This document shows, piece after piece, positions 14,305-64,000 of a stretch of DNA of 64,000 nucleotides. The stretch covers positions 25,666,409 to 25,730,408 of the forward strand of contig JASCQW010000190.1 of NCBI GenBank assembly GCA_030264375.1. Direction: 5' to 3'. The notes below the pieces were generated by a model. The model was given only the letters and a program-made list of their open reading frames with translations. It made no database searches and had not been told where the DNA came from. Both the position numbers and the translations under genes were made by a program. The stretch comes from Carcharhinus longimanus (Eukaryota). Each line of letters begins with the position of its first letter. Positions within the stretch are counted from its first letter, which is position 1.

Positions 14305-16808
14305 TTATTTCACATGTTCTGCAGTATGAGAAGAACAGTAATACTTCTTGTGAGCTATAAAAGTTGAAAGGCTACTGAACTTGATGTTGCACAAGCGACA
14401 GTATCTGTGGTTTCCATTCTGCACCGGGCTTGGGAGTGACATGGCTGTCTGAACAGATTTGTCAACATTCATGGCTGGGCTAAGGGATTTGAAACCTGGG
14501 TTCCTGGGACTTTCAGGCACTGGTAATATTTTCAAAGCAACATTAGGGGAGGGTGTCACTAAAGGTTTAGGTGAGATGTTTTGCAAAGGACTTTCAACTG
14601 ATGACTGGGAAGAGAGCGATTCTCTTTGATCTTTGGCATTCGGGATATTCTTCTGTATTTGAGCAACTGATTTGAGAGATGGGGCAGAAACTATGGAATT
14701 CTGAGGGCTGATTTCAGAAACACTGTTTGTCATGAGTTTACCTGGTGCTGAAATATCGTGCATTAAGCCATCTGCTGAGTGCCCAGTTGAAAGTTGCTTG
14801 GCCAACAACAAATCATGAACATTCTTAAAATGATCAATAAGGTCTCCTTCAATTGGTCCATTAAGTGGACAATAGGGGCAGATGACTGAATGAGTGCGCT
14901 GAGATGCTGAGAAGGTTTTAACATGGGGTGACATCTGAGGCCCATCTTGCAAAACATCTGAACTACTGTGATACATTCCTGGAGAGCTGTTGGGCGTAAC
15001 ACTGCCATGTACTATGTTTGGACTTTCTGGAATACATTTAGTGCTTATTTCATTTTTCTTCAATTCCTCAGTTTGTATTGGAGGGTCTGCATTTTCCACC
15101 CTATTTTTCTTGGCTTTTACTGAAGCTGATGCCTGCATCTTTACTCTGGCCAGATGCTCCACCTTGCTGTGCTGAAGAGCAGTAGCAGAGCAGTAATACT
15201 TTTTGTGAGTAAGATAGTTTTCTACATTGTTGAAACCAATTTTGCAGGAGGTACATTCATGATAGTCTGTTGAAAAGTGCGAGGCTGGACGCAAAGGGGC
15301 AACATGAATCAACGGTTCTTCCTGAATACGAGGCTTTTTGCTAAGATCAATTGGTCCATCAACATCCAAACTTGAACCTGGTGATGATGTTGCACTGGAC
15401 TGTGTTGTTAATATATAACCTGTTGATAGGGAAAGAGAATCTGATGACCTTGAAGAAAGTGAGAGAGCCTCTTGTTTAATTTTCAAAGGTTCCACATTGT
15501 TAGGTGGCCCAGCACTTTGAAGGATGGCAGCCGAAGGACTGTGAACAGGTACTTCACTTGGGGAAGGTGGAGGAAAGGGCTGATGGCTAGTACCATGAAT
15601 CTCATACAGTTTTCTACGTTTACGTGTACGTACAATTTGCTGAAGCATTGCCGCTTTTCCTCCGTTTGGCCTGCGAAGAGGGGGGTCATGTCTTGAAGCA
15701 CAATATAAACGCTTGTGGACCACATAAGTTTCATGCCGGGTAAACCTTATATTGCAGGCTTCACAGACAGTTTTTGAAGGGTCATCATCAAAATCTTCAA
15801 CGGAGTTGCTTGGACTTTGGCTGCCTTCACTGACTCTACTAACACTTTCCCCTTCAGATGAGGTATCCTTCATGGCACTGTCTTCACTTTTGATTTCTGG
15901 AGGTTTACTCTCAACATTTGGTGTCCGCAGGTCTCTTTCAGAGTCAGTCTGTGAGGAAGAAGCATGCTGGTTTTCTGTTCCAGAAGTTGGGCTGTGAATT
16001 ACTTGTTCATTTCTATGTGCGGGTGCAGAATCTTTCACAGCGTCATCGACAGTAGGGTTTTCTGCCTGCTGATGCCTGCTGGAACAGTAGAGTCGTTTGT
16101 GTGCCAAATAATTGTTGATATTATTGAATGTAATGTCACATTCATAGCATGTTGCTCCTTTTTGAATGGGTGCTCCTGCATAGAGAAGTGGATAGTTGTT
16201 GACTCCTTGCTTTAATCTGCTGTGGACCAGCTCAGACATCTTGGCTAAAATTTCAGAAGCTTGTGGAAATGTGGAAGTTTCATGACTGAACATGTATGGT
16301 ATCAGAACTGTTCCTTCAGGCATAATTGAACCTGTCCCGCAGTGGACAGGACTCGAGGCTGGTGTTGGGCTTGAACACTCCGATTTCACCTTTGCTATCA
16401 ATGTGCTTCTTGGTGATGAAACATTGGAAGATTGGTCAGGAGTAGGGGCTGTCTGACCCTCCACCATTGTCCTATCACCTTCACTTTCACACTGCAAATT
16501 GAGAGGCTCCTCTTTGACTTTCACAACTACGTCAAGTTCCTCGGAAACTTCTCTACTCAAAGCTGGAGATCTTCTGTCATCCCTGCCCTTTGTCTCCTCC
16601 ACATTGTGCCATGGCTCATCACCTTGATGAATCTCCATGTGCTTGGCCAACTCTGCAGCATTTCTTAGCTTCTCGTGGCACTGGCTGCACTGAAATGTAT
16701 CTTGTACAACATGCAATGAAATATGTTGCTGCAAGTTTGATTCAGAATCCCCAACATACTCACACTGGTTACACTTCAGGCTTAGGAAAGGACTTGCAAC
16801 CTTTACAC
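14305..16808 (-). CDS. ZFPM1: ZFPM1/FOG1 terminal coding exon: 7 zinc fingers, NLS, CtBP motif, stop codon
   Basis: Acceptor tttatcacag|GT, phase 1, open to TAA at 14305-14307. Contains ASEILAKMSELVHSRL; CCHC fingers CYEC..HKRLYC, CEAC..HKRLYC, CTSC..HKKYYC and CRLC..HKKYYC; C2H2 CPYC..HFKNVH; two extra N-terminal C2H2 fingers; ends SSHTAEHVK. Confidence 0.98.
15340..15354 (-). other. ZFPM1: PIDLS CtBP-binding motif of FOG1
   Basis: CCA ATT GAT CTT AGC in frame (GPIDLSKKPR), the established PXDLS CtBP motif of FOG proteins. Confidence 0.93.
15610..15630 (-). other. ZFPM1: Basic NLS RTRKRRK
   Basis: In-frame basic cluster after finger 6, at the position of the FOG-family NLS. Confidence 0.8.
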
Positions 16809-17161: not shown

Positions 17162-17305
17162 CTGTTGGAGGAAGTGCAGGTACACCTGTCCTTGGAGAAG
17201 ATGAGTCACCTCTTGCCCCTGGCTGGCAGGCCATGTGATTGGTAAGTAGATGACTGTACAAGATATCTCTTGTGGTGGAGACAAATCCACAGCCATGACA
17301 AACAC
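17162..17305 (-). CDS. ZFPM1: ZFPM1/FOG1 coding exon (exon 9 equivalent): C2H2 finger 4
   Basis: Acceptor ttaccacag|GT, donor ACAG|gtaagc, 144 nt, phase 1 to 1. Encodes VCHGCGFVSTTRDILYSHLLTNHMACQPGARGD... Confidence 0.96.
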
Positions 17306-26346: not shown

Positions 26347-26442
26347 CATTCAGGCTGTCCATGTGCACTTTCAGGTGTCGCTCACAGTTTGCTTTCGTTG
26401 TAAATGCTGATAGACAGATTAGACACACAAATGGCCTTTCAC
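26347..26442 (-). CDS. ZFPM1: ZFPM1/FOG1 coding exon (exon 8 equivalent): C2H2 finger 3; not in ORF track
   Basis: Acceptor ttgatcag|GT, donor AATG|gtaatt, 96 nt, phase 1 to 1. Encodes (G)[31 protein letters not shown](G), nearly identical to recalled FOG1 finger 3. Confidence 0.96.
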
Positions 26443-27984: not shown

Positions 27985-28870
27985 CCATTGCTGAATCCCT
28001 GACTATTAACATTCTGGGGGTTACCACTGACCAGCAAATTAACTGGAATAGCCAAATAAGCACTGTGGCTACAACAGCAGGTTAGCGGCTCGGAATTTTG
28101 TGGCAAGTAATTCATGTCCTGGCTCCCCAGAACTTGTCCACAGTCGACAAGGCACAAGTCAGGAGTGTGATGGAACACTCTCCGCTTGCCTGGATGGGTG
28201 CACCTCCAACAATATTGAAGAAACTTGACGTCATCCAGGACAAAGCAGCCNNNNNNNNNNNNNNNNNNNNNNNNNNNNNNNNNNNNNNNNNNNNNNNNNN
28301 NNNNNNNNNNNNNNNNNNNNNNNNNNNNNNNNNNNNNNNNNNNNNNNNNNATGGAACACTCTCCGCTTGCCTGGATGGGTTCACCTCCAACAATATTGAA
28401 GAAACTTGACGTCATCCAGGACAAAGCAGCCTGCTTGACTGGCAACCCTACCACCGCCTTCAATTTACACTCCCTCCACCACTGACGCACAGTGCCAGCA
28501 GTGTGCACCAACTACAAGATACACTGCAGCAACTCACCAAGGTTCCTTCGACAGCACCTACCAAAACCACGGTCTCTACCACCTAGAAGAGCAAGGGCAG
28601 CAGTTACATGGGAACACCACCACGAACAAGTTCCCCTTCAAACCACACACCCTCCTGATTTGGAACAATATCACAATTCCTTCGCTGTTGCCAGATCAGA
28701 ATCCAGGAGCTCTCTTCTTAACAGCACTGTGGCTGTTCTAACACCATATGGGCTGCAGCAGTTCAAGGTGGCGGCTCATCAATACCTTCTCAAAGGCATT
28801 TCTGCATTTATGAACGGACAATAAATATTGGCCTAGCCTGCAATGCCCACCTGCCATAAACAAACAAATT
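27985..28870 (+). mobile_element. CR1-clade LINE, second family, 3' portion
   Basis: KAQVRSVMEHSPLAWMGAPPTILKKLDVIQDKAACL; 3' end gcagcagttcaaggtggcggctcatca...caataaat. Confidence 0.8.
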
Positions 28871-32265: not shown

Positions 32266-32490
32266 CACTGTGACTACGAACATGGATCTCCAGCGAACTG
32301 GCACTGGGACAACTTTTGTTGCATTGCGGGAAGGGACAGATACGCTCATGTGGTGAAGGATCCTTGAGCTTTTCCTCTGTAGGAGTGGGTACAGATTTCT
32401 GCCGGCTGGCACAGTAATACATAAGGTGAGCTTGCAGGTTTCTTTCGCTCCGATACCAAATCCCACACGATTTACAGGGAAAGATGTCCT
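32266..32490 (-). CDS. ZFPM1: ZFPM1/FOG1 coding exon (exon 7 equivalent): CCHC finger 1 and C2H2 finger 2
   Basis: Acceptor gttccag|AG, donor AGTG|gtgagt, 225 nt, phase 1 to 1. Encodes [30 protein letters not shown]...[24 protein letters not shown](G); [11 protein letters not shown] is FOG1-type. Confidence 0.97.
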
Positions 32491-33445: not shown

Positions 33446-33682
33446 TGTTGACAACTGCAGTAGCTAATATTGCAGCCATGCCCGCTTGCTGAGGAAGAAG
33501 CTGGATGTCAGAATGTAATGAAGCAGGGTAAGTGGTCGCTTGCTCCGAGCACTCTGCAGGCTCCACTGGCTCCATCTTAACACTTAGATTTAACACAGGG
33601 TAATTGTTACTCTGATCAACAATTGCTGTTAAACATTCTCCTTCTGCGATGGGCTTAGTGGTTTTGCACCAGATCTGATTAT
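33446..33682 (-). CDS. ZFPM1: ZFPM1/FOG1 coding exon (exon 6 equivalent)
   Basis: Acceptor ttttcctctacag|AT, donor AACA|gtaagt, 237 nt, phase 1 to 1. Encodes NQIWCKTTKPIAEGE...DIQLLPQQAGMAAILATAVVN(K), a FOG-family signature. Confidence 0.95.
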
Positions 33683-34261
33683 CTGTAGAGGAAAACAAGA
33701 CACTTTTGTGAAACAGTTCTGAAGTGTTCTAACAGTGCCAGAGCTTGGTAATACATCCAAAACATTCTATAAATCTGCAGCAGATAGTATTTATTGTTTG
33801 CTAGGGGACTGAGTTCATTTATTTACCACCCCCTCCTCCACTTATTTTCTGATTTTGTTCACTCAGAATAGAGGATTGAATTTGTTCTGATTTTTGCTTC
33901 CTTTCCTCTCCAGGGCTTCAGATTTGGTCTCAATTGAGGGGACAAGTCACCTTCCTCATCAGAAATTTCCATCAGCTCTGATATTGTTCATAGATTGGGG
34001 ATCTGATCCTACCTACCCTAGAGACGCAGTTAGTTAACTGGAACTTAAATCAATTGGGGGAGGACCACTGGGGACAATGGGAATGATCGATACGCAGACC
34101 AGGAGCCTCATAAAGGTGAAGAAATGAGAGAATACTTCTGTCAACCTACCTTAACCAACTTGTACAAACCTGGCTATTAGCTCAGGCTCAAAGGCCAAGG
34201 TTGCTGCAAGTAAGTAGTTCACAACACCAGGTTAAAGTCCAACAGGTTTATTTGGTAGCAC

Positions 34262-41230: not shown

Positions 41231-41333
41231 CTTTGCAGTAGATGGTGCAATTGGCCGATTCTTCATTCACCGTTACTTTCAGTTGTCTTAACCAGCACCA
41301 TTCGTCCTTCAGCTGCAGGGTCACAGTAACACA
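41231..41333 (-). CDS. ZFPM1: ZFPM1/FOG1 coding exon (exon 5 equivalent), PR/SET-like domain; not in ORF track
   Basis: Acceptor ttttctccctgcag|TGT, donor AAAG|gtgtgt, 103 nt, phase 0 to 1, which fits both neighbouring exons. Encodes CVTVTLQLKDEWCWLRQLKVTVNEESANCTIYCK(D), with the CWLR...AN motif of FOG1. Confidence 0.9.
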
Positions 41334-63046: not shown

Positions 63047-63183
63047 CGAGTTATCACTTTCCAGGGTTCTTTTGTTGTTGCTGTTTATCGAACCTTCATA
63101 TGGACCCCAGGATAATCCTTTTGCCAGGCTTTGACATGCACGCACTTGCATTTCAGTGTCCAGGTGATGTAGCTCCAGTGACT
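63047..63183 (-). CDS. ZFPM1: ZFPM1/FOG1 coding exon (equivalent to human exon 4), start of PR/SET-like domain
   Basis: Acceptor tttaatcag|AG, donor TCG|gtagga, 137 nt, phase 1 to 0. Encodes (E)SLELHHLDTEMQVRACQSLAKGLSWGPYEGSINSNNKRTLESDNS; GLSWGP matches the FOG1 PR-like region as recalled. Confidence 0.88.
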
Positions 63184-64000
63184 CTGATTAAAATGAAATT
63201 TGAATAAAATAATTTAAATGAGATATTTCTTAGACCGCCCTTTATCATGCAATATAACATCTGCCTAAAACAAGACAAAGAGGTGTTCCCTTTAAAGCAA
63301 CTTGGAATGCAAGGAAAGTTGGGATGGGGAGATCAGATTCTCTGGGAAAGTATTCCACTCTTCCTTATCCTAAAATAAAAATAGCATGGACCAAAACAGC
63401 ATTTTCGAACTGCTTAATGGAGATCCAGAATTTTGCCAGCTTCTATTCTGATAATGCAAATTATTGGGTTGAGCCGTATGAACCCTGGTACACATCCACA
63501 CACTTCAGTGGACCAGAACTTTGAACCAACTTGAGTGCCAATAGGTCCCATAAAATAACACTACCAGCTGTCCCCACACTGCCACACTTTTTTTTCATGA
63601 GAATTAAGGATTTATCAAAAGATTGAGGAACAGGAACCCTCTTTGGTGTTGTCTTGTCCAATACAGAAATCAACATTCTGGAAAAGAATGCTCACCTGGA
63701 AGTGAACTTTGAGAAATCAATCAGTAACACATTGCTTTTTTCAGGATAATGTCCATCTCCTGTAAAAGGTTGGCCAATTTTTTAATCACTTTGATAGATA
63801 TACAGACAGGTCTCTGCTCTGTTTTAAAATGGCCATTTGCAATGACCACAAATGTGAGCATGGTAAGTCTTCAACAATAACAATGAATTCTCAAGTGAAG
63901 GTGCACAGCTGCTGAGAGGTGAAAAGAATAATAGAACTTTCATTTATGGGATTTTTTTTAAAAAAGTGCTGGTCACACCATTTGGTTCGATTTGTGAATA

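Follow-up and report, generated by a model that had tools for sequence, protein, structure and literature searches.

The minus strand of the analysed window, a stretch of 64,000 nucleotides from Carcharhinus longimanus, carries the ZFPM1 (FOG1) gene of this shark, whose product acts as a partner of GATA transcription factors. Zinc fingers were located by a six-frame scan of the window, and exons by tblastn with Mustelus ZFPM1. The scan returned 11 minus-strand fingers in gene order, five of the CCHC and six of the C2H2 type, which is the number and composition that an earlier, sequence-only reading of this DNA had given; two plus-strand matches were treated as chance. Fingers are numbered here as in mammalian FOG1 (F1 to F9), and the two extra C2H2 fingers at the start of the terminal exon are called A and B; all coordinates are collected in Table 1. 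The 45-nt exon, which would add 15 residues to the linker between F2 and F3, matches an insert in two Mustelus isoform models.

Table 1. Exons and zinc fingers of ZFPM1 in the window, in gene order (window positions).
Feature	Position	Strand	Basis
ZFPM1 PR-domain exon (earlier exons beyond the window)	63047..63184 (approximate ends)	-	tblastn
ZFPM1 PR-domain exon	41232..41333 (approximate ends)	-	tblastn
ZFPM1 exon upstream of finger 1	33447..33683 (approximate ends)	-	tblastn
Exon with fingers 1 and 2, phase 1-1	32266..32490	-	scan, tblastn
Finger 1, CCHC	32476-32411	-	scan
Finger 2, C2H2	32338-32270	-	scan
Likely alternative exon, 45 nt, AG/GT flanked, between fingers 2 and 3	28538..28582	-	
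Finger 3 exon, 96 nt, symmetric phase 1-1; no FOG2 counterpart	26347..26442	-	
Finger 3	26425-26363	-	scan
Finger 4 exon, 144 nt, symmetric phase 1-1; no FOG2 counterpart	17162..17305	-	
Finger 4	17300-17235	-	scan
Last coding exon, 2504 nt up to the stop, encoding fingers A, B and 5-9 and a PIDLS (CtBP-type) motif	14305..16808	-	
Finger A, C2H2, extra; corresponds to FOG2 finger 3	16711..16773	-	scan, scoring
Finger B, C2H2, extra; corresponds to FOG2 finger 4	16627..16689	-	scan, scoring
CCHC finger, equivalent to mammalian FOG1 finger 5	16084..16149	-	scan
Finger 6, CCHC	15700..15765	-	scan
Finger 7, CCHC	15190..15255	-	scan
Finger 8, C2H2 (H-x4-H); no intact FOG2 counterpart	14815..14880	-	scan
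Finger 9, C-terminal CCHC	14335..14400	-	scan, Pfam

The terminal exon shares 96% identity with that of Mustelus asterias ZFPM1; the best 120 matches to it were either ZFPM1 or entries without a name, and in a tree of 31 terminal-exon sequences (quick search) it fell within FOG1 with a support of 100, adjoining the catshark. A ZNF469 query, taken from a fused rodent protein model which implies that ZFPM1 and ZNF469 are adjacent in rodents, produced a single match in the shark genome, about 244 kb past the end of the window, on the same strand of the same contig and with a frame of 3556 aa. The assignment to FOG1, for which the sequence-only reading had looked to alignment and synteny, is therefore upheld both by the position of the gene on the FOG1 branch and by its upstream neighbour. 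The shark gene also possesses F3, F4 and F8, by which ZFPM1/FOG1 is recognized, its F3 scoring 53.4 bits against PDB 1srk (ZFPM1), and it bears the traits of the FOG family, namely five CCHC fingers, a PR domain and a PxDLS motif. The Mustelus orthologue matched the Pfam families CCHC_ZFPM2 and FOG1-like_PR and contains the N-terminal start with the NuRD-binding motif; the first exons of the Carcharhinus gene lie beyond the window. One further FOG gene is present in the genome, on contig C61, and is 99% identical to Mustelus ZFPM2a. Two paralogues that we take to be SALL-like are located one on the contig of FOG1 (C190) and one on that of FOG2 (C61), an arrangement which fits duplicated chromosome segments.

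The terminal exon starts at 16808, behind a pyrimidine-rich AG acceptor, and its intron is in phase 1, as are the introns of the three upstream finger exons; the exons of F3 and F4 are each flanked by phase-1 introns, and either can therefore be skipped in frame. The peptide quoted in the sequence-only reading was read exactly on the minus strand, and the exon opens, as that reading held, with two intact C2H2 fingers; A and B are each of the form C-x2-C-x12-H-x3-H, with 7 residues between them. The A+B stretch scored 38.3 bits against Pfam zf-C2H2 (cut-off 25.2; two stretches), and because 14 of the 15 chondrichthyan ZFPM1 rows contain the two fingers in intact form, the pair is no chance match. 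An in-frame AG at 16701 (12 of 20 pyrimidines) would skip A. Among cartilaginous fishes B has the lowest mean identity of any finger, 70.8% compared with 86% in A and 89-100% in the remaining fingers (linkers 60-80%), which argues that B is under weak constraint. Both points would suit an explanation in which the fingers lie outside the mature protein, either because a downstream acceptor skips them or because B is a drifting relic that binds no zinc. We regard this as very unlikely, given that the region of A and B is included in all 37 chondrichthyan ZFPM1 models examined, several of which skip F3, that A is well conserved at the above 86%, and that all four ligands of B are kept in 13 of 17 chondrichthyan species, the chimaera among them. 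The acceptor at 16808, judged from the DNA, is probably the one in use. Among the database models of Callorhinchus, some leave out F3, some F4 and some the two together, the last of these forms yielding the FOG2 junction.

The last exon of FOG2 in the same shark is organized likewise, with a phase-1 start, a short leader and a pair of C2H2 fingers spaced by 7 residues; A+B and the start of this exon are identical at 25 of 64 positions (39%; 49.3 bits). As tandem fingers generally resemble each other, the genome was searched both ways. With the FOG2 pair as query, A+B was the top non-self match (46.5 versus 36.5 bits; 150 of 1705 candidates scored); with A+B as query, FOG2 ranked first by a margin of 3.3 (44.6 versus 41.3 bits; 150 of 3605 candidates scored). 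A+B and FOG2 fingers 3/4 are thus reciprocal best matches in the genome among the 150 candidates scored each way. When individual fingers from 13 FOG1 and 89 FOG2 proteins were scored with the zinc ligands excluded, A scored best with FOG2 finger 3 (25.1; next 12.9) and B with FOG2 finger 4 (27.5; next -0.7); F3, F4 and F8 of FOG1 had no FOG2 partner, reaching at most 6.5 with any FOG2 finger. The proposal that the two extra fingers are of the FOG2 type is accordingly supported by reciprocal best match, by the shared exon start and phase, and by the ligand-excluded scores.

The 3/4 pair was found in all 120 ZFPM2 rows, and is strongly conserved in FOG2, whereas its A+B counterpart is weakly conserved in FOG1. 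Motifs of F3 and F4 occurred in none of the same 120 rows, and the 4.4-kb intron of shark FOG2, which is free of N, gave no match to either finger; the earlier statement that FOG2 lacks the finger 3/4 exons of FOG1 therefore holds for shark FOG2 and for 120 of 120 ZFPM2 rows. FOG2 likewise has no intact F8. A CLYPG segment, present in 105 of 120 FOG2 rows between FOG2 fingers 7 and 8, aligned with F8 of FOG1 but was not upheld as a relic of it, the best domain of a finger-8 profile falling there in 0 of 120. Thirty-one of the 120 ZFPM2 rows were without fingers 1 and 2, mostly as isoform models skipping the phase-1 exon, with a few last-exon fragments. Three divergent FOG2-like proteins, two of them named as teleost ZFPM2-like/ZFPM2b, keep both fingers of the pair, A alone, or neither.

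Among FOG1 proteins, B was found in cartilaginous fishes only. The layout that had been ascribed to the shark gene is present there, as claimed, but it is not confined to one shark and is common to the cartilaginous fishes. In four rays (Hemitrygon, Hypanus and two Mobula species) the second cysteine of B is replaced by serine, a decay that is separate from the loss in bony vertebrates. Two extra fingers occurred in 0 of 169 bony-vertebrate FOG1 rows: 148 rows had one extra finger, 20 had none, and in 1 a single extra finger was read by eye. The 20 rows lacking an extra finger comprised all 13 birds, marmot, elephant shrew, wallaby, 2 unnamed fragments and 2 turtle models; the wallaby row has a 3-residue deletion, two other marsupials keep A, and the turtle models look truncated. 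Fishes, amphibians and reptiles keep finger A, as do some marsupials. In birds and placentals it has decayed, and the A profile picked up relics of it, at 7.9-24.9 bits, in all 4 birds and all 5 placental-type rows that were tested. For B, a relic in bony FOG1 was unsupported, with 1 of 148 rows at -2.1 bits. In the lungfish, F8 of FOG1 has lost two zinc ligands.

Mammalian FOG1/ZFPM1 is described as having nine fingers (PMC4146578, PMC3250481), a count the sequence-only reading had adopted; it applies to placentals and birds, but most other bony vertebrates have ten. A putative tenth FOG1 finger in frogs and fishes is already noted in the legend of Fig. S1 of PMC3250481, which does not link it to FOG2. 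We take that finger to be A, since the Xenopus and teleost proteins retrieved have no extra finger but A.

The restriction of B to chondrichthyans among FOG1 rows would also be expected if A+B had moved from FOG2 into chondrichthyan FOG1 after the duplication, by gene conversion or exon transfer. Such a transfer is highly improbable: A+B are just 39% identical to the FOG2 of the same shark and form a branch of their own (99/96), A persists throughout the bony vertebrates, and the pair is present in outgroups.

These outgroups were gathered by HMMER with a CCHC profile from 1.84 billion representatives (846 matches, of which the best 150 were taken, 145 new ones parsed and 20 named). The FOG protein of amphioxus (Branchiostoma XP_035679450.1) contains an F2-like finger and an F3-like finger followed by a pair with a 7-residue linker; that of Ptychodera (XP_070575941.1) contains an A+B-like pair, also with a 7-residue linker. 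Single-finger scores were weak: of 197 generic fingers, 48 scored as high as or higher than the F3-like finger of amphioxus and 67 did so against its B-like finger, the amphioxus finger at the A position ranked higher on the F4 profile, and the second finger of echinoderms scored both as F4 and as A. As single-finger scoring was too noisy, pairs were scored instead. On the A+B profile the amphioxus pair reached 48.8 bits, which 5 of 154 generic pairs matched, and the Ptychodera pair 52.5 bits, matched by 1 of 154; glutamine at linker position 3 is found in both and in most vertebrate linkers, and in 1 of 153 generic linkers. On the F3+F4 profile the echinoderm pairs (n=5) scored 32.7-47.3 bits, three of the five lying above all 154 generic pairs.

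Two trees of finger pairs were built, each on 52 columns and each with long-branch warnings. In the first, A+B, FOG2 3/4, amphioxus and the hemichordate formed one group (99/98); in the second, to which 22 generic pairs were added, the same four again fell together (99/97). The two extra fingers thus group with FOG2 fingers 3/4, as the sequence-only reading required. The F3+F4 pair of FOG1 grouped with the echinoderm pairs at 96/92 in the first tree and 100/98 in the second. Since F3+F4 and A+B are each found in outgroups that precede the duplication, both pairs are likely older than the split between FOG1 and FOG2. No protein among the 145 representatives parsed contained all of F2, F3, F4, A and B: amphioxus lacks a clear F4, echinoderms lack A+B, and Ptychodera has one finger before A+B. 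The ancestral array of five fingers would thus be the union of what the several outgroups hold. Amphioxus FOG has further C2H2 fingers that are without a counterpart in the shark, and the shark gene is therefore not the full ancestral set.

Alternatively, A+B could be ancestral and F4, perhaps with F3, a gain of FOG1 only, for example through duplication of A or exon shuffling, in which case FOG2 would never have lost that pair. Amphioxus, the closest outgroup with the cluster, does have four fingers there with no clear F4, the F4 and A profiles cross-react on outgroup fingers, and F3 and F4 lie on symmetric exons, which are readily gained as well as lost; moreover, the nearest non-self genome match to F3 is a finger of another gene (68% identical over 25 residues; contig C132, at about 134.36 Mb), presumably RREB1-like from its motifs. 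A gain confined to FOG1 is nonetheless unlikely in our judgement, because it is at odds with the echinoderm pairs, both in their scores on the F3+F4 profile and in their grouping at 100/98 with the FOG1 pair, and with the tunicate Styela, which has F2, F3 and an H-x4-H finger in the place of F4 (assigned by position only).

The F2-B cluster was absent from all 4 cyclostome genes examined, and these therefore give no direction; cyclostomes were rejected as a polarising outgroup, the cluster having been lost in them. The lamprey and hagfish FOG genes examined keep the CCHC fingers, and two lamprey genes retain different late C2H2 fingers. Candidates for F8, at 16-20 bits and with 0-1 of 197 generic fingers scoring as high, were present in amphioxus, Ptychodera, a crinoid and one lamprey gene, which suggests that FOG2 likely lost F8 too. 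The single C2H2 finger of Petromyzon was discarded as F8, as it aligns upstream of the site and scored 5.1 bits, equalled by 15 of 197 generic fingers; a second lamprey gene has a better candidate (17.7 bits; 1 of 197).

We consider it likely that A+B of the 11-finger shark FOG1 represent the kept half of an ancestral array that was split between the FOG1 and FOG2 duplicates. The ancestor would have carried the C2H2 array F2-F3-F4-A-B before the vertebrate duplication. FOG2 would then have dropped F3 and F4 before the split of sharks and bony fishes, the reading frame being preserved because both lie on symmetric phase-1 exons; FOG1 would have lost B in the stem of the bony vertebrates, and A would have decayed later, separately in birds and in placentals. 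The ancestral layout and reciprocal loss put forward in the sequence-only reading are thereby retained as regards the homology of the pair, the missing FOG2 exons, the orthology and the outgroups, and are refined as follows: the loss in FOG1 was stepwise, and the ancestral set was larger than that of the shark.

The linker within A+B is canonical in length but not in sequence, and neither finger has an arginine at helix position -1, 3 or 6; on these grounds we read A+B as an accessory pair that would bind protein partners, under weak constraint, rather than as a classical DNA-reading array. By the same token the 3/4 pair may be essential to FOG2 and A+B dispensable to FOG1. GATA binding has been assigned to fingers 1, 5, 6 and 9 (PMC3250481). 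These four are intact in shark FOG1, in which, by analogy, GATA binding would still proceed via the CCHC fingers. A broader proposal, which we offer tentatively as possible rather than probable, is that FOG in the ancestor of the deuterostomes bore the five-finger array, which is whole today only in chondrichthyan FOG1, that FOG2 is an exon-skip form which became fixed, and that the two pairs bind different partners; if true, separate partners of the finger pairs would explain part of the differences between FOG1 and FOG2. The exon-skipped form that FOG2 would have fixed is one that chimaera FOG1 still appears to make.

A full-text literature search, read at the level of titles and the starts of abstracts and with subscription papers mostly outside it, returned neither an 11-finger FOG1 nor the homology of A+B to FOG2. 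An ESM Atlas search yielded nothing beyond generic finger clusters and clusters already known as FOG, and in a PDB search with A+B the best 60 of 208 matches were all other zinc-finger proteins. The protein models themselves are already in public databases, and partitioning after duplication is a familiar pattern. What changes is the correspondence of fingers: the C2H2 fingers of FOG1 and FOG2 are usually numbered serially, as though fingers 3/4 of the two proteins corresponded, which they do not. FOG2 fingers 3/4 correspond to a pair lost from placental FOG1, and nothing in FOG2 corresponds to FOG1 fingers 3/4, so that finger homology is corrected for mutants and variants. This likewise accounts for the orphan tenth finger in frogs and fishes, whose FOG1 is structurally unequal to the mouse protein. 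As natural chimeras, shark FOG1 and its skip isoforms would allow the role of each pair to be probed.

Compared with known systems, the shark gene resembles mammalian FOG1 in its PR domain, F1-F4, CCHC fingers 5, 6, 7 and 9, C2H2 finger 8, PIDLS motif and upstream ZNF469; unlike mammalian FOG1, its last exon opens with two more C2H2 fingers, of which placentals keep just a relic of A. With the ten-finger FOG1 of frogs and fishes it shares A, but not B, as none of the 169 bony rows has two extra fingers. FOG2/ZFPM2, with eight fingers, is alike in that its fingers 3/4 agree with shark A+B in exon start, in phase and in their spacing of 7 residues, and differs in lacking the F3 and F4 exons and an intact F8. 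In the invertebrate deuterostomes, amphioxus FOG has F2-like and F3-like fingers and A+B, the hemichordate has A+B, and echinoderms have F3+F4-like fingers; none has all five. Under duplication-degeneration-complementation, duplicates lose ancestral parts in a complementary fashion. The FOG genes differ from this scheme in that the parts are coding fingers and that the losses on one side are spread over several later lineages; they are a well-supported instance of domains being partitioned between duplicates, in which complementary function is putative.
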